Source: a phage
Assembly (NCBI GenBank): GCA_019326865.1
Contig: GCA_019326865.1_4101.1
Strand: one strand, 5' to 3'
DNA length: 64,000 bases
In this document: positions 3,166-46,729 of the stretch, one piece after another
Position numbering within the stretch: the stretch's first letter is position 1
Layout of the letters: the number at the start of each line of letters is the position of its first letter
Translations under genes and position numbers: made by a program
The notes under the pieces: generated by a model
Database searches by the model: none
What the model saw: the letters and a program-made list of their open reading frames with translations, nothing else
Told to the model about the DNA's origin: nothing

Positions 3166-4905
3166 ATGAGTTGGAAACGACATATGACAGTGGGAAGGTC
3201 AAAGCTATCGACTATCCCAAATCAGTCCAATAATAGCAATAAATCAACAGGAACAAAAACCAATTTTGCTTCCTATCTTCCAGTTGTATATAATGGATTG
3301 GCAAACCGTACTGAACGTTATAGTCAGTATGAGCAAATGGACCAAGACCCTGAAATTAGAACTGCATTGAATATCATTGCTGACTTTTGTACTCAAAGTA
3401 CTGAAGATTATGGTTTACCATATAAAATAAAATACAAAGATGATATTGGAGATACTGAAGTAACAACGATTGAAGATCGTTTAGATGCATGGACTGAACA
3501 AAATGATTTTAAAACACGAATGTATGAGATTGTACGTGGTCTTTTGAAATATGGGGACCAGTTTTTTATCCGAGATCCAGAAACATTTGATTGGTATTGG
3601 GTGAGTCCAAAAAACGTCGAACAAGTATTTGTTAATGAAGCAACTGGGAAAACACCAGTAATTTATTACATACGTGATGTATCATTAAACTTAAAAGATA
3701 AAGTTTATAGTAATCTACAAGTTGGATTCGATAAAACCGCTTATCCTGGTGCTATTCCTACAACAATGGGTGGTGGTGGTTCTGTCGCTGCTGGCGGTGC
3801 ATCTGGATTCACTAGTCAAGGTAATACTGCTGACCCTTTCAGCACTAATGGTCAATTAGATGTTATTCCTGTTGGTGCAGAACACGTAATCCATTTGACG
3901 CTAAATACTGGACAAGATGGAGTATGGCCTTTTGGTACTAGTATACTTGAGGATGTATTCAAAGTTTATAAACAAAAAGAACTTCTAGAAGATAGTATCA
4001 TAATTTATCGTGTACAACGTGCTCCAGAACGTCGTGTTTTTAAAATCGATGTTGGTGATATGCAAGCACATCAGGCAATGGCTTATGTGGAAAGATTTAA
4101 AAACGAAATTCATCAGCGTAGAATACCTTCAAACAAAGGTGGAAGTACTTCTTTAATGGATGCAGCATATAATCCTTTAAGTATATTAGAAGATTACTTT
4201 TTCCCACAAACTTCTGAAGGTCGTGGTTCGGATGTTCAAACTTTACCAGGTGGTGATAACTTAGGGCAAATTGATGACTTACGCTACTTCAATAATAAAT
4301 TGATACGTGGTCTTCAAATACCAGCTTCCTATCTACCACAAGGTCCAGATGATGGTGGTGTTTCATTATTTGGTGATGGTGCAACACAAGCTATGGCAAG
4401 TGAATTACGATTCAATAATCAATGTATGCGTTATCAGCGTTTAGTTGCGAAACATTTTGATGCTGAATTCAAAAGATTTATGGTAAAAAATGGATATAAT
4501 ATTAGTACTTCATCATTTGAAGTCATTATGAATCCACCAATTAACTTAGCTTCTTATCGTAAAGCTGAATTGGATGCTAAATTAATTAATACATATCTAC
4601 CTCTTAATGATTTACCTTATATGGCTAAACAAACAATTCTTGAGAAAATGGGCTTTTCTAAAGCAGATATTGTTAAGAATGAACAAATGTGGTTACAAGA
4701 GAATCCACAAGATGGTTCTCAACCTTCTAGTGGTGAAGAAGATTCTGCTGGATTACAGTCTGTTGGTATTGATGCACCAAATGACCCAGGTATGGATCTT
4801 GGTATTGACGGTGATGGTAATTTAGAAAGTGCTGATTCCGAATATCAAGAACAACAAAGTGGAAGTGATGGTTTCAATCCTAATAATTTAGGCAATTCTT
4901 TTTAA
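3166..4905 (+). CDS. gp20: portal vertex protein (T4 gp20-like)
   Basis: Segment IIIYRVQRAPERRVFKIDVGDMQAHQAMAYVERFKN matches T4 gp20 [32 protein letters not shown]; size and position before the core/protease/scaffold/MCP genes. Confidence 0.85.
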   Translation: MSWKRHMTVGRSKLSTIPNQSNNSNKSTGTKTNFASYLPVVYNGLANRTERYSQYEQMDQDPEIRTALNIIADFCTQSTEDYGLPYKIKYKDDIGDTEVTTIEDRLDAWTEQNDFKTRMYEIVRGLLKYGDQFFIRDPETFDWYWVSPKNVEQVFVNEATGKTPVIYYIRDVSLNLKDKVYSNLQVGFDKTAYPGAIPTTMGGGGSVAAGGASGFTSQGNTADPFSTNGQLDVIPVGAEHVIHLTLNTGQDGVWPFGTSILEDVFKVYKQKELLEDSIIIYRVQRAPERRVFKIDVGDMQAHQAMAYVERFKNEIHQRRIPSNKGGSTSLMDAAYNPLSILEDYFFPQTSEGRGSDVQTLPGGDNLGQIDDLRYFNNKLIRGLQIPASYLPQGPDDGGVSLFGDGATQAMASELRFNNQCMRYQRLVAKHFDAEFKRFMVKNGYNISTSSFEVIMNPPINLASYRKAELDAKLINTYLPLNDLPYMAKQTILEKMGFSKADIVKNEQMWLQENPQDGSQPSSGEEDSAGLQSVGIDAPNDPGMDLGIDGDGNLESADSEYQEQQSGSDGFNPNNLGNSF

Positions 4906-4926
4906 ACATAAATAACAGTGTATAAG

Positions 4927-4952
4927 AATGAGGGTTTATATTAGCCCTCATT
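4927..4952 (+). terminator. hairpin after portal gene (aatgaggg / ccctcatt)
   Basis: 8-bp inverted repeat with 10-nt loop, followed by tttataat. Confidence 0.35.
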
Positions 4953-4978
4953 TATAATGCATATTTCAAGGAGATTGA

Positions 4979-5206
4979 ATGTTAAAGGACATCTTTGAAT
5001 CTAGCAGTGATTCAATGTACGACCCTGAAGATGATCAGAACGTATATAAAATTACTGACTCCAGAAAACCAAAACTAACATTACAAGTATTAAATAACTT
5101 AAGAAAGTATCGTGAATTTAAAGCACATGAGGAACAACGCCGCAAAAATGTGGTTGCTGTTGTTTATGCATCTACCCCAACAGGTGATGATTCTGGATTA
5201 ATGTAA
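4979..5206 (+). CDS. small hypothetical protein (possible prohead core protein, gp67 position)
   Basis: 75-aa ORF between portal and protease genes; call is positional only. Confidence 0.4.
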   Translation: MLKDIFESSSDSMYDPEDDQNVYKITDSRKPKLTLQVLNNLRKYREFKAHEEQRRKNVVAVVYASTPTGDDSGLM

Positions 5207-5250
5207 ATCAAAAATCGCACTTTTTTAAGCTTTTAAAAAAGGTGATTTTA

Positions 5251-5295
5251 TTCAGTACTAAATAATATCATACTTTATACGAATATAATATATCT
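5251..5295 (+). promoter_or_regulatory. conserved ~45-bp upstream block with TAAATAAT core (late-promoter-like)
   Basis: ttcagtactaaataatatcatactttatacgaatataatat is near-identical to the block at 7995-8040 upstream of the capsid gene. Confidence 0.45.
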
Positions 5296-6782: not shown

Positions 6783-6798
6783 CATTTTAAAAATATAA

Positions 6799-6824
6799 AT
6801 ATCTGTATGTTGAAGTACAGATAT
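6799..6824 (+). other. 9-bp-stem hairpin (atatctgta / tacagatat) in the protease-scaffold intergenic region
   Basis: Perfect inverted repeat immediately after a TATAAATA element at 6794-6801; no T-run follows. Confidence 0.4.
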
Positions 6825-6848
6825 TTCAGTACTTAAAGGAGAGAACGA

Positions 6849-7964: not shown

Positions 7965-7994
7965 ACATTTTAAAGCATTTTAATAATCAATTTT

Positions 7995-8040
7995 TTCAGT
8001 TCTATAAATAATATCATACTGAAAAACGAATATAACATCT
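7995..8040 (+). promoter_or_regulatory. late-promoter-like element containing TATAAATA (8004-8011)
   Basis: ttcagttctataaataatatcatactgaaaaacgaatataacat; TATAAATA is the T4 late promoter consensus; ~45 nt upstream of the capsid gene. Confidence 0.5.
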
Positions 8041-8055
8041 TTAAGGAGATATATA

Positions 8056-9231
8056 ATGTCACAACTACTAAATGAATCCAAATGGGTAGCAGTAAAAGAG
8101 AAACTAGTTGAAGGTCTACAGGGTACTCGTAAGTCTGTAATGGAAACTGTTCTTGATAACCATCGTAAAGTTATGCTAACTGAATCCGCAACTTCTGGTG
8201 CAACTACCGCTGGTAATATCGCTACACTAAACAAAGTGATTCTACCAATTATGCGTCGTGTAATGCCAACTGTTATTGCTAACGAAATTATCGGTGTTCA
8301 GCCTATGACTGGTCCAGTCGGTCAAATTCACACCCTACGTGTACAATATGCTGATAATGCACCTGGTGTTATCGCTGGTGAAGAAATGCTTTCTCCATAC
8401 AAAATCGCTAAATCCTACTCTGGTGAACTAAATTCTGATAACAGCAATCCTCAAGCTGCTCCTACTAGCCAACTAGAAGGTACTATGGGTCGTCGCGTTA
8501 ACATCCGTATTCTACGTGAAACTGTTGAAGCGAAATCTCGTCGTCTATCTGCACGTTGGACTGTTGAATCTGCACAAGATGCTCAATCCCAACATGGTGT
8601 TGACGTTGAAGCAGAACTAATGGCTGCAATCGCTCAAGAAGTTACCGTAGAAATCGACCAAGAGCTACTAAGCCGTCTACGTGCACTACCAGGTGCTGCT
8701 GCTGTAACTTATGACCAATCTAAAGTTACTGGTGTTGCAACCTTCGTTGGTGATGAGCACGCTGCTCTAGCAACTCTAATTAACCGTCAAGCAAACGAAG
8801 TTGCTCGTCGTACTAAGCGTGGTGCTGCAAACTGGGCTGTTGTTTCCCCAACTGCACTAACCATTCTACAATCTGCTACTACTTCTAGCTTTGCACGTAC
8901 CACTGAAGGTACTTTCGAAGCACCAACTAACGTTAAGTTTGTAGGTACTCTAAACAGCACTATGCGTATTTTTGTTGATACTTATGCAAGTGATTCAGAA
9001 GATATTCTAATTGGTTATAAAGGTAATGCAGAAACTGATGCTGGTGTGTTTTATTGCCCATACATCCCACTAATGGCGTCCGGTACTGTAATGGACCCTA
9101 ACACTGGAGAACTCGTAACCACTTTCTTAACCAGATACGGGTACGTTCAGTTGACCGATAGCACCAGTTCACTAGGTAACGCTGCTGACTACTACAGCAA
9201 AATCGCTATCAAAAACGTTACTTTCATGTAA
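8056..9231 (+). CDS. gp23: major capsid protein (T4 gp23 family, compact 391 aa)
   Basis: IANEIIGVQPMTGPVGQIHTLRVQY vs T4 gp23 IAFDICGVQPMNSPTGQVFALRAVY; RILRETVEAKSRRLSA vs RIDKQVIEAKSRQLKA; ILIGYKGNAETDAGVFYCPYIPL vs FTVGYKGPNEMDAGIYYAPYVAL. Confidence 0.9.
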   Translation: MSQLLNESKWVAVKEKLVEGLQGTRKSVMETVLDNHRKVMLTESATSGATTAGNIATLNKVILPIMRRVMPTVIANEIIGVQPMTGPVGQIHTLRVQYADNAPGVIAGEEMLSPYKIAKSYSGELNSDNSNPQAAPTSQLEGTMGRRVNIRILRETVEAKSRRLSARWTVESAQDAQSQHGVDVEAELMAAIAQEVTVEIDQELLSRLRALPGAAAVTYDQSKVTGVATFVGDEHAALATLINRQANEVARRTKRGAANWAVVSPTALTILQSATTSSFARTTEGTFEAPTNVKFVGTLNSTMRIFVDTYASDSEDILIGYKGNAETDAGVFYCPYIPLMASGTVMDPNTGELVTTFLTRYGYVQLTDSTSSLGNAADYYSKIAIKNVTFM

Positions 9232-9274: not shown

Positions 9275-9302
9275 AGGGACTCTTCGGAGTCCCTTTTTTT
9301 TG
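9275..9302 (+). terminator. rho-independent terminator after capsid gene
   Basis: agggactc-ttcg-gagtccct hairpin followed by a T-run. Confidence 0.75.
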
Positions 9303-9324: not shown

Positions 9325-9353
9325 TTGACAGCACTTAACAATTGTAGTATCAT
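9325..9353 (+). promoter_or_regulatory. sigma70-like promoter TTGACA-N17-TATCAT
   Basis: ttgaca at 9325-9330, tatcat at 9348-9353; sits upstream of the GTG start at 9388. Confidence 0.5.
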
Positions 9354-9387: not shown

Positions 9388-10983
9388 GTGTTAGAAGAAA
9401 TCAAGAAGTTTTTATCAGAGAAAAATGTTCGTGGTGTTAAATCTGCTCTGCAAGCAAAATCTGTATACATTGAATTCCTGCGAGAGATGTTTGGTGATAT
9501 CGATCTTAATGAAATGATTTATATGGTATTGAATGATATTACTTCAGTGCCGAATGCTGAATGTGGTGACAAAGCTAAGTTTATAAGTATTACCGAAGGA
9601 TATTCTTACAAGTGCAATAAACCATTTCAAGGAAAAGGAAAATGCCTTATCTGTTGCTCCGCAGTTGCTAGGAAACGTAAAGAAACTTACAAAGAAAAAA
9701 CTGGTTATGATAACCCGGCACAGAATCCAGAAATTCAAAAGAAAATAGGGTATACCAATGAACAACGTTATGGCACTCGTATTGCTCAACAATCTGAACA
9801 AGTAAAGCAGAAATCAATAGAAACTAATATCAAAAAGTATGGCGTTGTTCATCCATCACAGTTGGAAAGTAATAAACAGCAACGTTTACAAACTGTACAA
9901 GAAAAGTATGGTATCAATAATGTATGGCAACTTAATAAAGGTCTTAGTGCACGTTATGAACAGTTTAAAACACGATTTGAACAGGATGGTAAATTTACTC
10001 TTTTAAGTGATGAATCCCATTATGATAATAGCAATGACGCAACTCATGCAATCATGCACTGGAAATGTAATGAATGTGGTAATGAGTTTGATAAAGTTGC
10101 TCTTTGCTTACGCTGCCCTAAGTGTGAACCATATTCATCCAGTACTGAAGAAGTTAATCTTTATAATTACATTACCTCTATCTATAGTGGTGTTGTTATT
10201 CAAAACAGCCGCAACATAATCAAAGGTAATGAAATTGATATTTTCATCCCAGAACTGAAACTTGGTATTGAGTTCAATGGTGAGTACTGGCATCGTGATG
10301 AAGTTCGTGGTAAAGACTATCATCAATCCAAATACTTCAAAATGAAGGAAGCAGGATACAAACTTATCACTATCTATAGTAATGAATGGTCAAATAAAAC
10401 TGAAATTGTTAAGAATCGTTTGAAAAGTTTGATTAGTGTGGATAGTAAAATCTATGCTCGTAAGTGTGAAGTTAGATTGGTTGTACATGAAGAATGTGAT
10501 AAATTTTTGTATGAACATCATATTCAAGGACCATGCCAATCATCAATCAAACTTGGACTTTACTATAATGATGATTTGGTTGCTTTGATGACATTTGGTG
10601 CACCACGATTTAACAAGCAGTATGAATATGAATTACTGCGTTATTGTTCTAAAGGAACAGTTGTTGGGGGTGCATCGAAACTGTTAAAACATTTTGAACG
10701 TATGTATCTTCCTAAATCTCTTCTTTCATACGCCGATATGAACTGGAGTACTGGTAATTTGTATGAAAAAATTGGTTTTACTTTAGAAGAAGTAACTCAA
10801 CCTGGTTATTTTTACTATGATAGAAAAAACGAAGTTGTTTATTCTCGCCATCAATGCCAAAAACAAAAACTTATTAAAAAATATAATTTTGATAGTTCTA
10901 TGACAGAGAAGGAAATGACAAAAGAATTAGGATACTTTAGAATCTATGATTGTGGTAACTTAGTTTATAAAAAGATTTACTAA
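9388..10983 (+). CDS. multi-domain putative nuclease, paralog 1 of 3 (Cys clusters, YGV repeats, Vsr/DUF559-like PD-(D/E)xK core, conserved C-terminal domain)
   Basis: GTG start with RBS ggaga 5 nt upstream; N-terminus VLEEIKKFLSEKN aligns with paralog 3 MIIDELKKFLKSKN; core motif IDIFIPELKLGIEFNGEYWH; C-terminal domain shared with 30327..31931 and 44978..46729. Confidence 0.7.
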   Translation: MLEEIKKFLSEKNVRGVKSALQAKSVYIEFLREMFGDIDLNEMIYMVLNDITSVPNAECGDKAKFISITEGYSYKCNKPFQGKGKCLICCSAVARKRKETYKEKTGYDNPAQNPEIQKKIGYTNEQRYGTRIAQQSEQVKQKSIETNIKKYGVVHPSQLESNKQQRLQTVQEKYGINNVWQLNKGLSARYEQFKTRFEQDGKFTLLSDESHYDNSNDATHAIMHWKCNECGNEFDKVALCLRCPKCEPYSSSTEEVNLYNYITSIYSGVVIQNSRNIIKGNEIDIFIPELKLGIEFNGEYWHRDEVRGKDYHQSKYFKMKEAGYKLITIYSNEWSNKTEIVKNRLKSLISVDSKIYARKCEVRLVVHEECDKFLYEHHIQGPCQSSIKLGLYYNDDLVALMTFGAPRFNKQYEYELLRYCSKGTVVGGASKLLKHFERMYLPKSLLSYADMNWSTGNLYEKIGFTLEEVTQPGYFYYDRKNEVVYSRHQCQKQKLIKKYNFDSSMTEKEMTKELGYFRIYDCGNLVYKKIY

Positions 10984-21584: not shown

Positions 21585-27936
<6,352 letters not shown>

Positions 27937-28024
27937 GTAAACCGTCAAAGGAACAATGAAGTTTCTAAGACAATTGAAGCCAATTAACAAATAACAAAGA
28001 AACCCAAAATCAAGGAAGAAATAT

Positions 28025-29083
28025 ATGAAATCTCTAGCTGAAATTCGTGCACACCTAAAAGCAGAACAAGAAAAAGCAGAAGCACAAAAGAATGGTACAT
28101 TCACTGGTGAGCGTAAAGCTGATTCGTTTCTAGCTTTCTGGAACGTACCTTACAATGAACCACTAAATCTACGTTTTCTACCAGATGCTGATGAGTCCAA
28201 CCCATTCTTCTGGCGTGAACGTGACATGATCAACCTAACATTCAATGGTGTAGTCGGTATGCACACTGATAAAGTAACCGTACAAGTACCTTGTAATGAA
28301 ATGTGGGTTCCTAAATCTTGTCCGGTTCTGAAAGAAGTACGTCAATGGTTCCAAAGTGCGAATGAAACAGGGAATGAAGAACTAAAAGCAATGGCAGGTC
28401 GTTACTGGAAGAAAAAAACTTATCTAATGCAATGCTTTATTGCACCAGATAGTGTTGCAGTAAAAGACGACATTGCACCAGAAAATCCAATTCGCCGTAT
28501 TCTAGCTAACAAAGATATCTTTGATAAAGTTAAATCTATCCTACTAAACCCAGGTATCAAAGAATCCCCAACTCACTACGTTCAAGGTCGTGATTTTGGT
28601 ATTGTTAAAACTAAGAACGGTGGTGGATATAATAGCTACGACATGTCACAATTCTCCATGTCAGAGCGTCCACTAAACGAAGAAGAACTAGCAGCAATCG
28701 AAAAATATGGTCTATTCAATCTAAATGATTTTATGCCAAAACAACCAACTCCAGAAGAGTTGAAAGCAATCGAAGAAATGTTCGAAGCATCAGTAAATGG
28801 TGAAGCATATGATCCAGCACGTTGGGCATTTGCATATCGTCCAGCAGGTGTACCAAAGCCTAACACTGGAACTACCACTGTCACTGAATCAAAACCAACT
28901 CCTGCTCCAGTACAACAAGAGTCAACACCTGCACCAGTAGCACCTACTGTTCCAGTTACACCAGCACCACAAGCTGCTCCTGTAACCCCAGTCGCTACAC
29001 CAGCAGCATCTACGACTGAAGCACCAAAAGAACAACTATCTGCATCTGCACTAGTTGCTCGTTTGAAACAACAAGGTAAGTAA
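28025..29083 (+). CDS. gp32: ssDNA-binding protein (T4 gp32-like)
   Basis: LRFLP matches T4 gp32 IRFLP; Ala/Pro/Thr-rich C-terminal tail; position before uvsX; two promoters upstream. Confidence 0.6.
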   Translation: MKSLAEIRAHLKAEQEKAEAQKNGTFTGERKADSFLAFWNVPYNEPLNLRFLPDADESNPFFWRERDMINLTFNGVVGMHTDKVTVQVPCNEMWVPKSCPVLKEVRQWFQSANETGNEELKAMAGRYWKKKTYLMQCFIAPDSVAVKDDIAPENPIRRILANKDIFDKVKSILLNPGIKESPTHYVQGRDFGIVKTKNGGGYNSYDMSQFSMSERPLNEEELAAIEKYGLFNLNDFMPKQPTPEELKAIEEMFEASVNGEAYDPARWAFAYRPAGVPKPNTGTTTVTESKPTPAPVQQESTPAPVAPTVPVTPAPQAAPVTPVATPAASTTEAPKEQLSASALVARLKQQGK

Positions 29084-29101
29084 TAGTTTTTTGAAAAGTT
29101 A

Positions 29102-29128
29102 AGGGGCAACGGAGTTTGCCCCGTTTTA
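29102..29128 (+). terminator. rho-independent terminator
   Basis: ggggcaa-cggagt-ttgcccc hairpin followed by gtttt. Confidence 0.7.
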
Positions 29129-29153
29129 TTTCATAAAATTCAAGGAGAGAATT

Positions 29154-30275
29154 ATGAAAATGACAAGTGGTTTTGCGAACATTCTTAAAAACAGTACTGG
29201 TAGTGTAAAAAAGAATACTGGTGTTAGTGTTGGATTTCATGATCCAGATACATGGGTTAGTACTGGTAACTATGCACTAAATTACCGTATCAGTGGTTAT
29301 TTTGACCGTGGTATCCCACTAGGTAAAGTAACTATGTTTGCTGGTGAATCAGGTAGTGGTAAATCTTTTATTGTATCCGGTAACATCGCACGTGAAGCTC
29401 AACAACAAGGTATTTTTGTTGTAATGATTGACACAGAGAATGCTTTGGATTCAGATTGGCTACAAGCTCTTGGTGTTGACACTTCTGAAGAAAAACTTCT
29501 TAAAGTTAATATGGGTATGATTGGTGATGTAGCCAAATTCACTTATGAATTTATTGAAGGATATCGCAAAGAGTACGAAAATACACCTAAAGATGAACGC
29601 CAAAAAGTATTGTTCATTATCGATTCGATTGGTATGCTTAATACTGAAGTATCTAATGATCAAATGAAGGCTGGTAATCTTAAAGGTGATATGGGACATA
29701 AACCTAAGCAGCTAAAAGCATATATTACTAACTGTGTGAATTCTATTGGTTCACTAAATATTGGAATGGTTTGTGTGAACCATTCGTATGAATCACAGGA
29801 TATGTTTAATCCAGATCCTAAAGTGTCTGGTGGTAGTGGTTTGATTTATGCATCATCAATGGTGATTGCAATGGGTAAACTAAAACTAAAAGAAGATGAG
29901 GATGGTAATAAAACTTCCGATGTGAGTGGTATTCGCTCCAAATGTAAAGTTATGAAAACTCGTTATAATAAACCATTCGAGGAAGTCGAGATTAAGATTC
30001 CTTGGGATAAAGGTATGGACCCGCGTAGTGGTTTGTTGGATATGTTTGAAAAATATGGACTTATTGTTAAATCAGGTAACCGATTGATGTATGTTGATAT
30101 CGACACTGGTGAGCAAATCTTGAAATACCGCAAAGAATGGATGCGTAACGATGATTTATGTTTGGATTTGGTAATGCATCAATTTAAACGTCACCCACTG
30201 ATTGAAGAAGTCAAAGAGGAAGAAAAAGGTGATGAATCTTTTGGTGTAGATAGTTCAACTGATAGTACTGAATAA
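29154..30275 (+). CDS. uvsX: UvsX recombinase (RecA-like)
   Basis: Walker A GESGSGKS; DPRSGLLDMFEKYGLIVKSGNRLMY vs T4 UvsX DPYSGLLDMALELGFVVKPKNGWY. Confidence 0.9.
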   Translation: MKMTSGFANILKNSTGSVKKNTGVSVGFHDPDTWVSTGNYALNYRISGYFDRGIPLGKVTMFAGESGSGKSFIVSGNIAREAQQQGIFVVMIDTENALDSDWLQALGVDTSEEKLLKVNMGMIGDVAKFTYEFIEGYRKEYENTPKDERQKVLFIIDSIGMLNTEVSNDQMKAGNLKGDMGHKPKQLKAYITNCVNSIGSLNIGMVCVNHSYESQDMFNPDPKVSGGSGLIYASSMVIAMGKLKLKEDEDGNKTSDVSGIRSKCKVMKTRYNKPFEEVEIKIPWDKGMDPRSGLLDMFEKYGLIVKSGNRLMYVDIDTGEQILKYRKEWMRNDDLCLDLVMHQFKRHPLIEEVKEEEKGDESFGVDSSTDSTE

Positions 30276-30285
30276 TGATATGTTA

Positions 30286-30316
30286 TATGAATGGCCCGTA
30301 TGGGTCATTCTTTTTT
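30286..30316 (+). terminator. hairpin plus T-run overlapping the annotated 5' end of ORF 30291
   Basis: gaatggccc-gtat-gggtcattc followed by ttttttg; this is why the downstream start is placed at 30327. Confidence 0.55.
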
Positions 30317-30326
30317 GAGGATGTGT

Positions 30327-31931
30327 ATGATTGATATATCCAAATTATATAATATGATAAAAGACATTCCCCATCCTAATTCTCGTAAAAAAATACTAAT
30401 GGGGGAAATTTCCGAAGAAGATATGATGGAGTTCGGAACAACTGAATTAAAGCAGATTGATTATTGTATAATGAATAAATTAAAACATGTACCATTAGCA
30501 CCGTGCGGGGAAAATAAAAAATACCATAATGGAAAATATTTGAATGTATGTGAAAAATATAAACTTGGTGACAATCATTCATGTATAGTCTGTCATGAAA
30601 ATAAGACAAAAGAAACATTATCTAAAATGAAGAAAACTTCTTTATCTAAATATCAAACTGAATTTCCTAATCAGTCCATTGATGTAAAAAGAAAGATACG
30701 AGAAAATTCTAATTTTACTGAAGATGAAAAAAACGCAATTAATGAAAAGAAAAAAGAAACATCATTGAAACAATTCGGTACTGAACATCCAATGAAGAAT
30801 AGTACTGTTAAGTTGACACAAATTCAGTCCAGAAAAAAGACACAAGAGCAAACTAACAACAAAAGAATTAAAACTTTAATGCAGAAAAAAACATTAAATG
30901 TTTCTGAAAATTTGGATAAATCAAAATATGAAATTGTTGAATTGCGATTGGGGACTAATGTAAAAAGTACATTCAGGTGTTTACAGTGTGGACAACAATT
31001 TGATGCATTAAGTCATTGGGGATGTAAAGTTGTTTACTGTCCACAATGTGATGTTTCACCTATGCGTTCTAATATGGAAAATGATGTTGTATCTATCATA
31101 AAAGAAATAGAACCAACTATTGATATTGAACTTAATAATAGAAAAATCATAAAACCAAAAGAAATAGATATATATTTGCCTAAGTATAATTTGGGTATAG
31201 AAGTTAATGGAATGTACTGGCATTCTGATAAATTTAAGTCAGAAAACTATCATCAAGATAAAGTTAAAGCTGCTATGTCATCTGGAATGAAATTATTAAC
31301 AATTTATGATTATGATCTTTCAAAAAACAAAGATGTAATAGTTTCAATGATAAAAAATTCAATGAATAAATCTTCTTTTAATGTTTATGCAAGAAAATGT
31401 GAAATTAAAGAAGTACCTAAAGTTGAAGAACGTAATTTCCTAAACACCTATCATATTCAAGGATTTGTTGGTTCAAATATTTGTTATGGTTTGTATTATA
31501 ATTGCGAGTTAGTATCATTAATGTCTTTTGGTAAGCCAAGATTTAATAAAAATTTTGAATATGAAATTATACGATTTTGTTCAAAAGGTAATGTTGTTGG
31601 TGCAGCAGGGAAGTTATTAAAACATTTTGAGATAACTATCAAGCCTAAGTCATTGATTACATATGCTGATTTACGATATGGATATGGTAAAACTTATGAA
31701 AAAATAGGTTTTGAATACAAATATATTACTAAACCTGGATATTTTTATGTTAATGGAAAGGGTGATGTGGTTACTCGATATCAAGCACAAAAACATAAAC
31801 TTCTGAAGAAATACCCAGAATATCAAAATGAGACAAACATTACTGAATATGATATAATGGGGTCTGAAGGATATTTAAAGATATATGATTGTGGAAACGC
31901 TGTGTATGTGAAGGAATACAACAATGAATAA
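30327..31931 (+). CDS. multi-domain putative nuclease, paralog 2 of 3
   Basis: RBS gagg 6 nt before ATG 30327; core motif IDIYLPKYNLGIEVNGMYWH; C-terminal domain VYARKCEI...HIQG...FGKPRFNKNFEYEIIRFCSKGNVVGAAGKLLKHFE matches paralogs 1 and 3. Confidence 0.7.
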   Translation: MIDISKLYNMIKDIPHPNSRKKILMGEISEEDMMEFGTTELKQIDYCIMNKLKHVPLAPCGENKKYHNGKYLNVCEKYKLGDNHSCIVCHENKTKETLSKMKKTSLSKYQTEFPNQSIDVKRKIRENSNFTEDEKNAINEKKKETSLKQFGTEHPMKNSTVKLTQIQSRKKTQEQTNNKRIKTLMQKKTLNVSENLDKSKYEIVELRLGTNVKSTFRCLQCGQQFDALSHWGCKVVYCPQCDVSPMRSNMENDVVSIIKEIEPTIDIELNNRKIIKPKEIDIYLPKYNLGIEVNGMYWHSDKFKSENYHQDKVKAAMSSGMKLLTIYDYDLSKNKDVIVSMIKNSMNKSSFNVYARKCEIKEVPKVEERNFLNTYHIQGFVGSNICYGLYYNCELVSLMSFGKPRFNKNFEYEIIRFCSKGNVVGAAGKLLKHFEITIKPKSLITYADLRYGYGKTYEKIGFEYKYITKPGYFYVNGKGDVVTRYQAQKHKLLKKYPEYQNETNITEYDIMGSEGYLKIYDCGNAVYVKEYNNE

Positions 31932-32388
31932 ACCTTGGCATTGGATTATCAAAGATGATAAATCTAAAATTATTGAAATGATTGAGTTCTTTAACAAAGA
32001 AATTGAAGAGGCTCGTTGTGAAGTAAAGAAGATTGGCATCATTGAAAAAATTGCTCAAGAGATTCCTGGCTGGCATGAGACGCGTCTAAGCCAGCTCCAA
32101 GAACTTGAAGCAGTATTGGAAATGTTAGAAATTGAAATGCGTCAGATACAAGCCGAGAAGTTCAAATACTTTCTCGAAGGATACCGACGTGCACTATCTT
32201 CATCTGACTGTAAAAAGTATGTTGAAGGTGATAAAGATGTTTGTGAGTTAGCAGAACTTATAAACGAGGTATCTTATATAAGAAATACATATTCTAGTAT
32301 TGTTAAATCTTTAGAAATGAAAGCATTTCAATTGAATAACATTGTAAGGCTACGTGCTTCTGGTATAGAGGACGCACGTTTGGAATAA
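31924..32388 (+). CDS. hypothetical protein (weak UvsY-like pattern)
   Basis: 154 aa; C-terminal EGDKDVCELAELINE...AFQLNNIVRLR loosely resembles T4 UvsY ADKDVLKVDTSL...KHIQDMR. Uncertain. Confidence 0.4.
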   Translation: MNKPWHWIIKDDKSKIIEMIEFFNKEIEEARCEVKKIGIIEKIAQEIPGWHETRLSQLQELEAVLEMLEIEMRQIQAEKFKYFLEGYRRALSSSDCKKYVEGDKDVCELAELINEVSYIRNTYSSIVKSLEMKAFQLNNIVRLRASGIEDARLE

Positions 32389-32398
32389 TTATCATTAA

Positions 32399-32421
32399 GG
32401 ACGCATCCCGCGTCCTTTTTC
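32399..32421 (+). terminator. rho-independent terminator
   Basis: ggacgc-atcc-cgcgtcc hairpin followed by ttttt. Confidence 0.65.
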
Positions 32422-32438
32422 TATGTGAGATTAAACAA

Positions 32439-33257
32439 ATGACAAAATTAAATGAATTCTTATCAAATGTAGCAGTTCTTGATACTGAAACCACTGGTGT
32501 TGAAAGTGATGATGATATTATTGAATTTAGTATCTCATATCCATATACTTCACATGAAAACATTGATACTATTGATAACTATACATTGCGATATAAACCA
32601 CTGAAAGATATTCCACCAGAAGCATCGGCTGTTCACTTTATCAGTACTGAGGATGTAGCTAATTGTGTTGGGTATAAAGATGATTTAGATAACATAGATG
32701 CACTTATGGGATGCCGTAAGTATTTTGTTGGTCATAATGTACAATTTGACCGTAGAATGATGGTAGATAATGAATATAAATATCGTAACTCAGTTTCACA
32801 GTACTTACTCGATGAAGATAAATGGATTTGTACTCTTCGTTTGGCTAAGAAAATGTTTGCAGAAGATACCGAATATAAAAACTTAACTCTAAGTTATTTG
32901 TGGTATAAGTTTGGATGCCATCGAGATGTTCACAGACCTATTAATGCTCACGCGGCAAAAGATGATGTATTCATGTGTTATCAGGTTCTAATCAAATTGG
33001 TTGAAATTGCCATCGAACGTGGTCATATTGATTCCAATGGGGATATTGGTGAACAAATAGTAGCTTTTTGTAACACCCCAATGCGTTATCAATTCATGCC
33101 ATTTGGTAAACATAAAGGTGAGCCAATGAATACAGTACCATTGAATTACATTGAATGGATGATCACTAATAGTGACATTTTAGATGCAAGTAACCCTAAC
33201 TGTGATAAAGATTTAGTATATACATTTGAGTACGAATATAATACTCGAACTAATTAA
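32439..33257 (+). CDS. DEDD-family 3'-5' exonuclease (DexA/DnaQ-like)
   Basis: Exo I VLDTETTG and Exo II VGHNVQFD motifs. Confidence 0.65.
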   Translation: MTKLNEFLSNVAVLDTETTGVESDDDIIEFSISYPYTSHENIDTIDNYTLRYKPLKDIPPEASAVHFISTEDVANCVGYKDDLDNIDALMGCRKYFVGHNVQFDRRMMVDNEYKYRNSVSQYLLDEDKWICTLRLAKKMFAEDTEYKNLTLSYLWYKFGCHRDVHRPINAHAAKDDVFMCYQVLIKLVEIAIERGHIDSNGDIGEQIVAFCNTPMRYQFMPFGKHKGEPMNTVPLNYIEWMITNSDILDASNPNCDKDLVYTFEYEYNTRTN

Positions 33258-33272
33258 TAAAGGTAATCATGG

Positions 33273-34757
33273 ATGAAAACTTGTAAGTTAACCTTATTGG
33301 ATGAGGTGAATTGTAAATTTGAGGGACTTGATCCCTCAATTAGACAAAAGATGATTCGTGCAACTGAATATGTGTTACCATATGCAAAGTTCACACCAGC
33401 AGGACGTATTGGACGTTGGGATGGTAAAGTTCAGTTTATGAATTTAGGTGGAACAACTTATTATCATATGTTAGATAAGTTATTGCCTATTCTTGATGAA
33501 GCTAAGATTGACATTGAATTGGTAGATCATAGGGTAGATTATGGATTTAAATTTGACCCTATTGATGAAGATATTTTTAGTGATGTTGTATTCGGTGCAG
33601 GACACCACATGGAAGGTAAATCCATAAAACTACGTGAACATCAAGTTAATGCGGTTAATGCATGTTTGGCTAATCCACACGGATTACTATTGGCAGCTAC
33701 TGGTGCAGGTAAAACACTCATTACTGCTGCATTGTCAAAGAAAGTGCAAGAGTATGGACGTTCTGTTATAATAGTACCAAGTACTGACTTAGTACAACAA
33801 ACATATGATGACTATATTATGTGTGGGTTGGATACTGGTATGTTCTATGGTTCACAAAAAGATTTTGGTCACCAACATACTATTACAACGTGGCAATCAT
33901 TTAACTCTCTATGGAAGAAAACCAAGAAAGGTGAAATTGAATTAACTGAACAAGATGTTAATGATTTTATCGATGGAGTAGTTTGTGTTATCGTTGATGA
34001 GTGTCAAGGTGCAGGTGGTGACGCATTAGTTCAAGTACTATCTAAAGTTATGAACAACGTACCATTACGTTGGGGTCTTACTGGTACAATTCCGAAAGAT
34101 CCGGTTGTCGCCGCAAAAATCAAATGTAATGTTGGTGATGTTATATTTAAAATAACTGCAAAGGAATTACAAGATAAACAGATACTAAGTACATGTAATG
34201 TAAATTGCATAAAACTAAAAAGTAGTATGAAGTTTGCATCATATGCTGAAGAGTTGAAATACTTAGTAACTGACAGAGATAGAATGGCATATATAGCATC
34301 ATTGATATCTGCGTTATCTGAATCAGGAAACACTTTAGTTTTAGTAGATAGGCTTGAAGCGGGTGAGTTGTTATGTGAATTTTTAGGTATTCCCAAATCA
34401 GAATTTGTTCGTGGAGAAACTAAAAAGAAAGATCGAGAATCATCATATGGTGAAATTCGTTGGGCTGATAATAAAATACTTATTGCGACATACGGTGTTG
34501 CCAGTACTGGTATCAGTATTTCAAGGTTATACAATGTAGTATTGATTGAGCCAGGAAAAAGTTTTGTAAGAACTATACAATCAATCGGACGTGGATTACG
34601 CCGAGCAGAAGATAAAGACCATGTGGAAATATATGATATTAGTGGTTCTAATAAGTATAGTGCAAAACATTTACGTGAACGTTTAGCATATTATAAGGAA
34701 GCACAATATCCGCATAGTATAATAGATGTTAAAGATTGGGAAAACACAGCGGGATAA
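33273..34757 (+). CDS. uvsW: UvsW-like SF2 helicase
   Basis: Walker A ATGAGKT, motif II VDECQ; IIVPSTDL, ILIATYGVASTGISI and IQSIGRGLRR align with T4 UvsW IIVPTTAL, IIIVASYGVFSTGISV and LQTIGRVLRK. Confidence 0.8.
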   Translation: MKTCKLTLLDEVNCKFEGLDPSIRQKMIRATEYVLPYAKFTPAGRIGRWDGKVQFMNLGGTTYYHMLDKLLPILDEAKIDIELVDHRVDYGFKFDPIDEDIFSDVVFGAGHHMEGKSIKLREHQVNAVNACLANPHGLLLAATGAGKTLITAALSKKVQEYGRSVIIVPSTDLVQQTYDDYIMCGLDTGMFYGSQKDFGHQHTITTWQSFNSLWKKTKKGEIELTEQDVNDFIDGVVCVIVDECQGAGGDALVQVLSKVMNNVPLRWGLTGTIPKDPVVAAKIKCNVGDVIFKITAKELQDKQILSTCNVNCIKLKSSMKFASYAEELKYLVTDRDRMAYIASLISALSESGNTLVLVDRLEAGELLCEFLGIPKSEFVRGETKKKDRESSYGEIRWADNKILIATYGVASTGISISRLYNVVLIEPGKSFVRTIQSIGRGLRRAEDKDHVEIYDISGSNKYSAKHLRERLAYYKEAQYPHSIIDVKDWENTAG

Positions 34758-44307: not shown

Positions 44308-44981
44308 ATTACGAATATGATCAACAATCAGTCAATCAGATGGCTGATTTGTTAAGTGGTCTTAATGATATTGAAGCTGGTGAGACACATGATGCGGCTG
44401 GTGTACCATATAAAGCTAGTGGTGATATTGGTGCAATGACTGCTATTTTAACTTCATTAAATGAAGCGGGTATGGATTATGGTATTGAACCTGAACAGAC
44501 ACATCCGAAGGTTGTGTCATATAACGCACCATTTAACGAACACATGAATGGACAACAACATGTTCAGCCTGTGATGCAACGTTCACCTTCTAAACCGAAA
44601 ACCAATTGGAGTTTAGTAGAAGAAAAGGTACAAGGCACGAAATCTACTAAAGTTTATAGTATTAAGTGTAACCATAGTTCACAAATTATCATGAATAATA
44701 TTATGATGTATGAAGCAGCACTTACTTTAGTTAACCTTCTTAACGAAGGGCGAATGTTGACAGATGCTAAAGTTCTTGGTATAATTAGTTCGGGTTTGCA
44801 ATACACAAATGTAATAAGCGAAGCATTAAAAGCAGCCCATAAACGCCAACGTGTACTTAATGAATCAAAGTATGATGAAGCAAAAGATTTAGATATAATC
44901 ATTGCAGAAAAGAAAGCAGAAGCGTATAAATTAAAAGAGCGTGTATTAAACTTTCTTAAAAATGAAGGGTACATCACTTGA
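44304..44981 (+). CDS. hypothetical protein
   Basis: 225-aa ORF. Confidence 0.45.
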   Translation: MNYEYDQQSVNQMADLLSGLNDIEAGETHDAAGVPYKASGDIGAMTAILTSLNEAGMDYGIEPEQTHPKVVSYNAPFNEHMNGQQHVQPVMQRSPSKPKTNWSLVEEKVQGTKSTKVYSIKCNHSSQIIMNNIMMYEAALTLVNLLNEGRMLTDAKVLGIISSGLQYTNVISEALKAAHKRQRVLNESKYDEAKDLDIIIAEKKAEAYKLKERVLNFLKNEGYIT

Positions 44982-46729
44982 TTATAGATGAATTGAAGAA
45001 ATTCTTAAAAAGCAAAAACAAAAAAACATGGGTTAAGTTGGTAAGCAATAATGAAGTGTATTTTAAATATGTTCGTGAATTATTCCCAACTAAACCCATG
45101 AATGAAGCATTGTATCTTATAATGAACGATATGGTATGTGCACCATCTGCCCCATGTGGCTCTGAATGTAAATTTATTAATGGTTCATATGATAAGTATT
45201 GTTCTAAGCCAACAAAACCAAACAAAAATCGTGATAATGGTTTTTGTGTAGTATGCAATGAGCATTGGAAGAACGCCAAACTCAAAAATACTAAACAAAA
45301 ATGCCTTGATGCTTATGGAGTCGAATATCATTGGCAAAGAAATGATGTGAAGGACAAAATAAAAAGTACTAATATGAAACGATATGGCGTTGAGCACAAT
45401 TCGCATATCGAACATGTTCTTGAAAAAAGAAAGGAAACCTTCATTAAAAGATATGGTGTTGAATCACCTTTAGCATCTGTTGAAATTCGTGATAAGATAA
45501 AAGCAACAAACATTGAAAAATATGGTGTTGAAAATTATGGAAGTACTGATGAATGTATAGAAAAACGAAATAAAACAATGATGGATTTATATGGTGTTAA
45601 TAATGCACAACATGTAACGAAATTTTTAAATGAATCAAAGGTTACGAAAGCTAAAATTAGGTATGATAAAATTTTATCTATTATTAACCCTTCATATAAA
45701 GAACTTTTTGAATATGATGACTTGATAGATTCAACTAATGAAAGTAAACTTCCGTATTATTGTGAAATACACAAAGGGCTGTTTTATAGTAATTATAAAT
45801 ATGGTATAGTTTGTAGTGTTTGTAATCCACCCGTGTATAGTTCCATACAAAATGAAATAAAGAATTTTGTATCAACATTGACTGAATGTGACATTATTAT
45901 GAATGATCGAAGTAATGGGTATGAATATGATATATACATCCCTGAACTCCAGATAGCAATAGAAGTTAATGGAATGTATTGGCACAAAAGTGATATGGTT
46001 GATAAGTATTATCATAGGACAAAAACAATAAATTCGATTGAACGTGGAATTAGATTGATACATATATTTGAAGATGAATGGTACAGTAAACAGGAAATTA
46101 TTAAAAATAGATTAATGAACGTTTTTCAATGTTCTAGTAAGATTTATGCCAGAAAATGTATTGTTAAAAAAATTAACACAAATATTTGTTATGATTTCTT
46201 GAACACTAATCACATACAAGGATATACTAAAACTGGAATAAACTATGGTTTGTTTTATAAACAAGAACTGATTGCAGTAATGACGTTCAGTAAAAGTCGA
46301 TATGATAAAAAATTTGAATATGAGCTAATACGATATTGCTCACGTGGAACGGTTGTTGGTGGGGCTGGTAAATTATTGTCTGCATTTGAGCGTGATTACA
46401 AACCATTGTCGTTGATGAGCTACGCAGACTTGAATTGGGGTTCTGGGCAGTTATACATATCTCTTAATTTTGAAAATTTGGGATATACCGAACCCAAATA
46501 TTTTTATTATGATCCAAAAACAAAACAGCGTTTTTCTAGACAAAAATTTAGAAAACATAAATTGATTGAAATGGGCCACGACTCATCTAAAACTGAAGAA
46601 GAGATATGCTTAGGTGAAATTGGATTGTATAAAATATACGATTCTGGCAATTGCAAATTTGCTAAATATTATTACAACATAAACATTACAGGAGATATTG
46701 AAAAATGTCCAAATCGTACAAAAAACTAA
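44978..46729 (+). CDS. multi-domain putative nuclease, paralog 3 of 3
   Basis: TTG start overlapping the upstream stop, RBS gaaggg 8 nt upstream; YGV repeats (RYGVEHNSH, RYGVESPLA, KYGVENYGS, LYGVNNAQH); core motif YDIYIPELQIAIEVNGMYWH; C-terminal domain conserved with paralogs 1 and 2. Confidence 0.7.
   Translation: MIIDELKKFLKSKNKKTWVKLVSNNEVYFKYVRELFPTKPMNEALYLIMNDMVCAPSAPCGSECKFINGSYDKYCSKPTKPNKNRDNGFCVVCNEHWKNAKLKNTKQKCLDAYGVEYHWQRNDVKDKIKSTNMKRYGVEHNSHIEHVLEKRKETFIKRYGVESPLASVEIRDKIKATNIEKYGVENYGSTDECIEKRNKTMMDLYGVNNAQHVTKFLNESKVTKAKIRYDKILSIINPSYKELFEYDDLIDSTNESKLPYYCEIHKGLFYSNYKYGIVCSVCNPPVYSSIQNEIKNFVSTLTECDIIMNDRSNGYEYDIYIPELQIAIEVNGMYWHKSDMVDKYYHRTKTINSIERGIRLIHIFEDEWYSKQEIIKNRLMNVFQCSSKIYARKCIVKKINTNICYDFLNTNHIQGYTKTGINYGLFYKQELIAVMTFSKSRYDKKFEYELIRYCSRGTVVGGAGKLLSAFERDYKPLSLMSYADLNWGSGQLYISLNFENLGYTEPKYFYYDPKTKQRFSRQKFRKHKLIEMGHDSSKTEEEICLGEIGLYKIYDSGNCKFAKYYYNINITGDIEKCPNRTKN

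Follow-up and report, generated by a model that had tools for sequence, protein, structure and literature searches.

A Hef-like homing endonuclease gene and its terminator-type hairpin inserted between uvsX and uvsY of an Asteriusvirus-like jumbo coliphage

The stretch of DNA analyzed here (64,000 nucleotides, contig GCA_019326865.1_4101.1 of the NCBI GenBank assembly GCA_019326865.1; hereafter, the window) comes from an Asteriusvirus-like jumbo coliphage, that is, a giant phage of Escherichia coli, and its closest GenBank relative is Escherichia phage ph0011, with an identity of 97.7% over the flanks of the insert described below. The local gene order is a gp32-like single-stranded DNA-binding protein gene, uvsX, a Hef-like homing endonuclease gene (HEG), uvsY, an exonuclease gene and a UvsW-like helicase gene. 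The uvsX and uvsY genes are both complete on their sides of the HEG, and the UvsX protein is 97.8% identical to that of ph0011. The GC content of the HEG was 26–28% vs. 34–36% in the neighbouring genes. The features of the locus were as follows:

29154–30275, plus strand: uvsX, RecA-like recombinase, the upstream host gene (Pfam RecA, 1e-14; T4_UVSX_C)

30023–30272, plus strand: divergent tract at the 3′ end of uvsX, abutting the insert (mismatch counts against ph0011)

30275–30277, plus strand: relic of the ancestral uvsY start codon, in a TAATG overlap with the uvsX stop codon (junction alignment with ph0011, UE-S1 and PBECO4)

30279–31930, plus strand: inserted DNA, 1,652 bp (junction alignments; low GC content)

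30289–30316, plus strand: intrinsic-terminator-like hairpin with a T6 run, part of the cassette (terminator scan, folding and comparison with relatives)

30317–30320, plus strand: Shine–Dalgarno sequence GAGG, 6 nt ahead of ATG 30327 and left free by the terminator hairpin

30327–31931, plus strand: Hef-like/EDxHD homing endonuclease gene, 534 aa (PHROG 3339, PDB 3r3p and AlphaFold (AF2) model)

31830–31858, plus strand: predicted promoter GAGACAAACATTACTGAATATGATATAAT (GAGACA-N17-TATAAT with TG), within the 3′ coding region of the HEG (match to the promoter class of the phage)

31924–32388, plus strand: uvsY, recombination mediator, the downstream host gene (Pfam UvsY; PHROG 231)

In the HEG-less Asteriusvirus phages ph0011, UE-S1, PBECO4, A4 and BF17, the TAA stop codon of uvsX overlaps the ATG of uvsY (TAATG type; GAATAATGAAACC; GAATAATGAAACCTTGG), and no hairpin was found between the two genes in any of these five phages, either aligned or annotated. 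In Eneladusvirus pEa_SNUABM_12, uvsX and uvsY were 2 nt apart, with no intervening gene and no hairpin. The boundaries of the insert carry an uncertainty of ±4 nt, because ATGA is present at both junctions; the length difference from ph0011 was 1,655 bp, including a 3-bp indel in the uvsX tail. The stop codon of the HEG overlaps a rebuilt ATG of uvsY (ATGAATAA), and the rebuilt start adds one codon to this gene (MNKPW vs. MKPW). The HEG was absent from all 69 matching GenBank phage records, ph0011 included, and 37 Asteriusvirus records matched both flanks with the middle missing. In IMG/VR, tblastn showed no inserted gene between uvsX and uvsY in 14 of the 15 loci, and an exact search there for the 41-mer comprising the left junction and the hairpin gave no match. 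The fixed site is thus polymorphic for presence and absence of the gene, which is lacking in the 69 GenBank records, present in one locus from a large protein database (L005) and present in divergent form in two further loci (L007 and L006). Such an occurrence at the junction in a few relatives is the pattern expected of a homing element. A preliminary description of this DNA, made from the letters alone, had proposed an independently acquired cassette, and the absence of the gene from these records, together with its low GC content, agrees with that proposal. The same description had named homologous genes at the locus in all related phages as a sign against its proposal; a few do have them, namely, the divergent ones in two other metagenomic phages, but not all.

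The hairpin has the form GAATGGCCC-GTAT-GGGTCATTC (30289–30310), is followed by TTTTTT (30311–30316) and begins 14 nt past the uvsX stop codon. Its stem comprises nine pairs, five of them G–C, and its loop comprises 4 nt; folded alone, it reached −14.2 kcal/mol and was more stable than every one of 200 dinucleotide shuffles (z = −4.6). The terminator scan of 28000–33500 returned nine sites vs. 2.5 expected, with this hairpin ranking first. It has the sequence characters of a Rho-independent terminator, namely, a G+C-rich stem, a short loop and U6 directly 3′ of the stem, and is treated here as a predicted terminator. Since the junction alignments place the insert at 30279–31930, the hairpin arrived with the gene; judged from these comparisons, it belongs to the insert and is not an ancestral terminator of uvsX. 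The hairpin and T run overlapping the start of the listed open reading frame (ORF) had been correctly noticed in the preliminary description, with a start coordinate that was off by 3 nt (30289 being the position found here). Its label of "uvsX terminator" did not hold, given that the hairpin lies inside the insert, is absent from HEG-less relatives and has a homologous counterpart before the L007 ortholog.

The longest ORF begins at ATG 30291, within the 5′ arm of the hairpin. On comparative evidence, the true start of the HEG is ATG 30327, as had been suggested earlier from the GAGG located 6 nt upstream: this position aligns with Met-1 of two orthologs and of both in-window paralogs; a 99%-identical public protein (P0001) was called at 534 aa, which matches that start; the L007 ortholog has an in-frame TAA directly 5′ of the equivalent ATG; and ATG 30291 is without a Shine–Dalgarno sequence. 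Sequestration of the ribosome-binding site, as in T4 I-TevI and Aeh1 mobE, was considered and rejected, as the terminator hairpin leaves the GAGG free. A small hairpin over the start codon was not significant (z = −0.9) and was not conserved in L007, and the longer AU-rich closing stem seen in an 85-nt fold was likewise not conserved. Translation from the relic ATG at 30275 would pass through the hairpin and, after 19 codons, reach a TGA at 30332–30334, 3 nt past the HEG start codon. This short ORF (30275–30334) could serve as a translational relay; the arrangement is not conserved, L007 having TAATTA without an overlapping ATG.

The HEG product matched PHROG 3339 "homing endonuclease" (3e-107), and its relatives in GenBank phages, annotated as hef, Hef-like or "homing endonuclease EDxHD", had an identity of at most 38% over the full length. 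Residues 258–333 matched I-Bth0305I (PDB 3r3p) at 2e-5 with the single sequence and at 3e-8 with a 48-sequence profile, and the paper on I-Bth0305I places phage Hef-type enzymes in the EDxHD/Vsr-like family (PMC3239194). The AlphaFold model was confident (mean pLDDT (predicted local distance difference test) of 92) and showed, from the N- to the C-terminus, a helical region with a Cys cluster (zinc finger), long helical repeats, a zinc ribbon, a Vsr-like nuclease (approximately aa 253–345) and a Mom-like GNAT-fold domain (approximately aa 350–534; window 31380–31928). The helical repeats match DUF7487 in relatives. With the target protein alone, Pfam and NCBIfam gave no family match, and the family-wide Pfam scan gave DUF7487, REase_MTES_1575 and Mom, with REase_MTES_1575/DUF559 in 25 of the 48 members. 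The catalytic set of the EDxHD family (Glu, metal-binding Asp, Asn/His, His and Asp) was found in the target: among the 48 homologs, D281 and H299 do not vary and E279 and E292 reach at least 90% conservation, the target having all four, and D281, N294 and H299 align with D196, N208 and H213 of I-Bth0305I. The target also has the final catalytic Asp (D311), which the orthologs do not conserve. As Rfam (E ≤ 1) found no intron or other RNA family in 29900–32600, the HEG is regarded as free-standing.

Two further Hef-like paralogs occur in the window, at 9388–10983 and 44978–46729, with 36% and 33% identity to the target, respectively. Paralog 1 (GTG 9388) lies behind the terminator of the capsid gene (9275–9294 plus a T run), and a promoter of its own, TTGACA-N17-TATCAT, is located at 9325. 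The start codon of paralog 3 is a TTG that overlaps the stop codon upstream of it, and this paralog has a perfect promoter-class site at 44757. All three in-window genes are sporadically distributed, paralogs 1 and 3 being found in some relatives only (UE-S1 and ph0011).

In the 48-sequence alignment of the Hef-like family, conservation is highest in the C-terminal domain, whose best PDB fold match by Foldseek was Mom of phage Mu (8bv8; E = 9e-7, template modelling (TM) score of 0.55–0.58 on the target). Pfam Mom matches were obtained in 10 of the 48 family members. The essential residues of Mom considered here are R111, S124, D149 and R151 (PMC13219725), together with Y159. A profile alignment, with an hhalign probability of only 1.2%, placed R416, D448, R450 and Y457 on Mom R111, D149, R151 and Y159, respectively; in the same alignment, the family consensus has Ser on Mom S124, and the target has Gly there. 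No paper noting a link between the Hef family and Mom was found.

The 99%-identical HEG copy of L005 has the same genomic setting, and its intergenic region, hairpin included, is identical to that of the window; the copy differs from the window gene at 11 nt, of which five are synonymous and six non-synonymous. Divergent orthologs were detected at the uvsX–uvsY junction of metagenomic jumbo phages, namely, P0003 (44% identity, L007) and P0002 (48% identity, L006). The L007 ortholog is preceded by the hairpin AATGACCGTA-AATT-TACGGTCATT (−12.8 kcal/mol, z = −5.5), followed by a T-rich run and TGAGG-N6-ATG. The hairpins of L007 and the window are homologous, sharing AATGRCC...GGTCATT, with one compensatory exchange of C–G to G–C. 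In L007, TTGACC-N17-TATAAT is located at 3930–3958, and its −10 element falls partly on the 5′ arm of the hairpin (a single sequence, without TG); transcripts from this candidate promoter would escape termination because the 5′ arm would be missing from them, an arrangement similar to the promoters within hairpins of T4 I-TevI and segB. L006 carries two Hef-like genes in tandem upstream of uvsY (2–226 and 226–1878); the start of the second, which is the ortholog, overlaps the stop codon of its neighbour (GAATAATGAAAG). The overlap of the HEG stop codon with the uvsY start is kept in the window, L007 and L006.

It should be noted that the same junction is occupied in Klebsiella phage RaK2 by an unrelated endonuclease, ORF115 (L012 2273–3501/L026 1358–2506; phrog_681, CapR and treble-clef zinc domains). 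A hairpin, ATGGTTGA-N6-TCAACCAT plus TTTTGTT, lies ahead of this gene, whose 3′ end falls on the ATG of uvsY. Since this unrelated endonuclease has both features at the same junction, the layout of a hairpin and a stop/start overlap appears to be convergent. Endonuclease-like sequences were also observed on the other side of uvsY. In UE-S1, a 239-aa ORF between uvsY and the exonuclease gene (L002 3788–4507) resembles a truncated HEG, its product matching Hef-like proteins over their repeats and nuclease (phrog_559, 5e-59); an insert of about that size occupies the same position in TH47 (L003 ~3700–4518).

The mismatch counts against ph0011 revealed a divergent flank on the uvsX side of the insert. 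Mismatches generally numbered about one per 100 bp and rose to 15, 21 and 19 per 100 bp across ~30023–30272, i.e., a tract of ~250 bp at the 3′ end of uvsX was ~20% diverged from ph0011, which elsewhere is 99% identical. The best GenBank phage match to this tract was 87% (A4). Directly past the insert, uvsY was 98–100% identical to ph0011. The uvsX 3′ tract is probably a co-conversion (gene-conversion) tract from an unsampled donor. Because the step in divergence is one-sided, the cleavage site is possibly located in or near the end of uvsX, perhaps within the divergent tract. The sequence AAACGTCACCCACTG in the uvsX 3′ end was considered as a candidate HEG-specific variant, which would have pointed to target-site immunity, and rejected, since it is also present in the HEG-less A4 and nearly identical in BF17. 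A second mosaic patch was observed at the 3′ end of uvsY (~32340–32400), with 14 mismatches per 100 bp relative to ph0011, PBECO4 and UE-S1; it is shared with L005, partly resembles A4 and L007 and adjoins the site of the extra endonuclease-like ORF in UE-S1 and TH47.

The promoter class of the phage consists of G(G/A)GACA or TTGACA, a spacer of 16–17 nt and TGnTATAAT (sigma70-like, extended −10). The element TGNTATAAT occurred 15 times on the plus strand and once on the minus strand of the window. Perfect three-element sites numbered six on the plus strand (14048, 27832, 31830, 39602, 44757 and 47691) and zero on the minus strand, vs. 0.007 expected per 64 kb under a second-order Markov model, and further sites of the class were located at 21586, 27909, 34751, 54179 and 58095. 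The site at 31830–31858 matches both hexamers fully (6/6 + 6/6 with TG), lies 66 nt ahead of the uvsY ATG and is conserved in L005; the corresponding region of the protein alignment is variable and bears insertions. Between the uvsX stop codon and 30327, the scan of the window found no promoter-class site, in line with the earlier remark that no promoter is visible ahead of the gene, and the only candidates for an HEG-specific promoter in the window, weak 9/12 sites, were wrongly placed and were rejected. As no promoter precedes it, the HEG should depend on read-through. About 15 terminator-like hairpins were found on the plus strand of the window, most of them 7–45 nt past a stop codon, and for many of them the next gene (e.g., uvsX and the exonuclease gene) starts 20–50 nt on, so that a gene directly behind a terminator is normal in this phage. 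A T4-late-like motif (TATAAATAATATCATAC, ACTAAATAATATCATAC and ATATAAATA) was observed upstream of structural genes (4906–5295, 6783–6848 and 7965–8055), including the region upstream of the major capsid gene at 8056, and is a candidate for the late promoter of this group of phages.

Taken together, these data make it highly likely that the insert is a Hef-like HEG cassette with its own terminator hairpin, which was copied into the overlap of the uvsX stop and the uvsY start. Most likely, this copying took place by double-strand-break repair from a donor phage, and the same repair would also have converted uvsX over its last ~250 bp. The mobile unit would then exceed the ORF: at its 5′ end, it would bring the terminator-type hairpin and the Shine–Dalgarno sequence, and its 3′ end would rebuild the stop/start overlap with uvsY; in this lineage, it would also hold a promoter of the phage class 66 nt ahead of uvsY. 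Transcripts from the gp32/uvsX promoters (27832 and 27909) would mostly, or in large share, end at the hairpin, and the endonuclease would be made only by read-through and stay low. Meanwhile, uvsY, uncoupled from uvsX, would be re-supplied by the promoter in the HEG, plus some read-through and coupling. In mixed infection, the endonuclease would cut HEG-less uvsX/uvsY alleles, and repair would copy the HEG in, spreading it by homing; we infer this cleavage and homing from the precise insertion, the sporadic distribution and the divergent flank.

Several observations weigh against this interpretation. The HEGs of the window and L005 differ at too few positions (11) for purifying selection to be demonstrated, and the divergent flank lies on one side of the insert only. 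Many genes of this phage have a hairpin 20–50 nt ahead of them, as uvsX itself does with no promoter between, and the hairpins may be leaky or may mainly serve RNA stability. No promoter was found at the equivalent place in the orthologs of L007 and L006, which indicates that the embedded promoter is specific to this lineage and is not a fixed part of the cassette; in addition, its spacer is 17 nt, and most intergenic members of the class have 16.

Other explanations concern the hairpin and the history of the gene. If the hairpin were the ancestral terminator of uvsX, with a foreign gene landed just 3′ of it, its position 14 nt past the uvsX stop codon would resemble that of other post-gene terminators in the window; yet the HEG-less relatives examined have overlapping (Asteriusvirus, TAATG) or 2-nt-apart (Eneladusvirus) genes and no hairpin, no GenBank match runs past ~30252 into the hairpin, and hairpins were found at the junction only where an endonuclease gene is present (window, L005, L007 and RaK2), which makes this explanation extremely improbable. 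That the cassette hairpin acts mainly as a 3′ stabiliser or processing barrier of the uvsX mRNA, or is part of a relay with restart at ATG 30275 over 19 codons, is unlikely but worth keeping in view. Many genes follow similar hairpins without a promoter between, and read-through must therefore be frequent; furthermore, the relic ATG still overlaps the uvsX TAA, and the short ORF ends just past the HEG start codon. Against this, the stem, the loop of 4 nt and the U6 run have the canonical form of an intrinsic terminator, L007 lacks the overlapping ATG, and the second, small hairpin over the start codon is neither significant nor conserved.

The HEG could also be ancestral at the junction and precisely lost from most relatives. 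The orthologs at the junction are only 44–48% identical, vs. 62–94% for the flanking proteins, and occupation of the site is therefore old. Nevertheless, ph0011 is ~99% identical on both sides and is without the gene, the ~20%-diverged 250-bp flank fits import from another lineage, and more distant genera (Eneladusvirus and others) have adjacent uvsX and uvsY. Thus, for this lineage, the near-identity to the HEG-less ph0011 and the foreign flank favour a gain, and ancestral presence is improbable. For the site as a whole, an early presence followed by repeated losses may be considered in view of the 44–48% identity of the orthologs. Finally, the protein might not be (only) a selfish nuclease, the gene being kept for a role of the Mom-like domain in DNA modification or in phage–host or phage–phage conflict. 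The conservation of this domain, its best fold match to Mu Mom, the low-confidence profile alignment of residues conserved among the 48 sequences with Mom R111, S124, D149, R151 and Y159, and the three paralogs in one genome speak for such a role; the hhalign value, the Gly of the target at Mom S124, the sporadic, site-specific distribution and low GC content typical of selfish HEGs, and the report of Hef of phage U5 as a homing endonuclease (PMC2988022) make it quite improbable.

The preferred reading, that of a homing cassette, thus corrects the annotation: the gene starts at 30327, encodes a Hef-like homing endonuclease and is preceded by a hairpin that is part of the insert. The locus provides a clean natural example of a selfish gene that splits a translationally coupled pair without disabling it. 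In uvsX, the insert also coincides with a breakpoint of recombination, in agreement with the proposal that nuclease genes mark the borders of genetic exchange between phages (PMC10448857). Unrelated endonucleases have landed repeatedly at the uvsX–uvsY junction of Rak2-like jumbo phages. At the level of the Hef family, the resemblance of the C-terminal domain to Mom offers a side lead that is open to experiment and more unusual than the locus itself. Two further propositions are speculative, and we assign them a low likelihood: that Hef-like proteins, including that of the window, have two activities, the Mom-like domain keeping a working Mom-type active site and, beyond DNA binding, modifying DNA or using a charged-tRNA or acyl cofactor, for example, to mark or protect the target of the element, and, separately, that the layout with a terminator at the entry and a promoter at the exit was selected and is convergent at the uvsX–uvsY overlap. 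The layout may be a convergent solution in view of the hairpin and stop/start overlap common to the unrelated endonuclease of RaK2.

Elsewhere in the window, the ORF of the terminase large subunit (885 aa, 23855–26512) contains a LAGLIDADG-type intein, the motif being visible in the translation, and the terminase homologs in L005 and L007 carry Pfam LAGLIDADG_3 and Terminase_6N. The UvsW-like helicase is 859 aa in L005 (6947–9526), with a weak LAGLIDADG_3 match, and 494 aa in the window (33273–34757); the L005 protein probably holds an intein that the window copy does not.

Among known systems, mobE and segF of T4 carry intrinsic terminators at their 5′ ends, and ~30% of transcripts stop at the mobE terminator, with mobE depending on the nrdA promoters and nrdB having its own promoter (PMC2988022). 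The working proposed for the window locus closely parallels that of mobE. Like the HEG of the window, mobE is free-standing, lies between two functionally linked genes (nrdA/nrdB) and combines a 5′ terminator and dependence on upstream promoters with a promoter for the downstream gene. However, mobE encodes an HNH enzyme, whereas the HEG encodes an EDxHD/Vsr-like one, and the mobE terminator lies in the 5′ coding region and the promoter is intergenic, whereas in the window the terminator is upstream of the ribosome-binding site and the promoter is in the 3′ coding region, both of them predicted. The hairpin position has a counterpart in seg43 of Aeromonas phage 25, which has a very stable hairpin just upstream of an unsequestered ribosome-binding site (PMC2988022); as in the window, the hairpin stands directly ahead of the free site of a free-standing HEG, although seg43 is of the GIY-YIG family and occupies another locus.

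By annotation and sequence, Hef of the T4-like phage U5 and the Hef-like HEGs of Campylobacter, Dickeya and Klebsiella phages belong to the same family as the window gene. Such HEGs are free-standing, often multi-copy and sporadically distributed (PMC3296691); the insertion sites differ, being uvsX–uvsY in the window and nrdA/nrdB for U5 Hef. I-Bth0305I shares the Vsr-like catalytic domain and targets a gene of the RecA family (PMC3239194), but it is intron-encoded, with a C-terminal nuclease domain and NUMOD/helix-turn-helix modules, whereas the product of the free-standing window gene has DUF7487-type helical repeats, zinc modules and an extra Mom-like C-terminal domain. In T4, uvsX (22,386–23,561) and uvsY (114,914–115,327) are 92 kb apart; as they are not neighbours, the earlier argument that T4 has no such gene between them carries no weight. 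T4 segA is also a free-standing HEG directly flanking the recombinase gene uvsX, but it is of the GIY-YIG type and lies upstream of uvsX. Thus, the HEG of the window is a new, divergent member of the free-standing Hef-like/EDxHD homing endonucleases, with a regulatory layout that has a precedent in T4.

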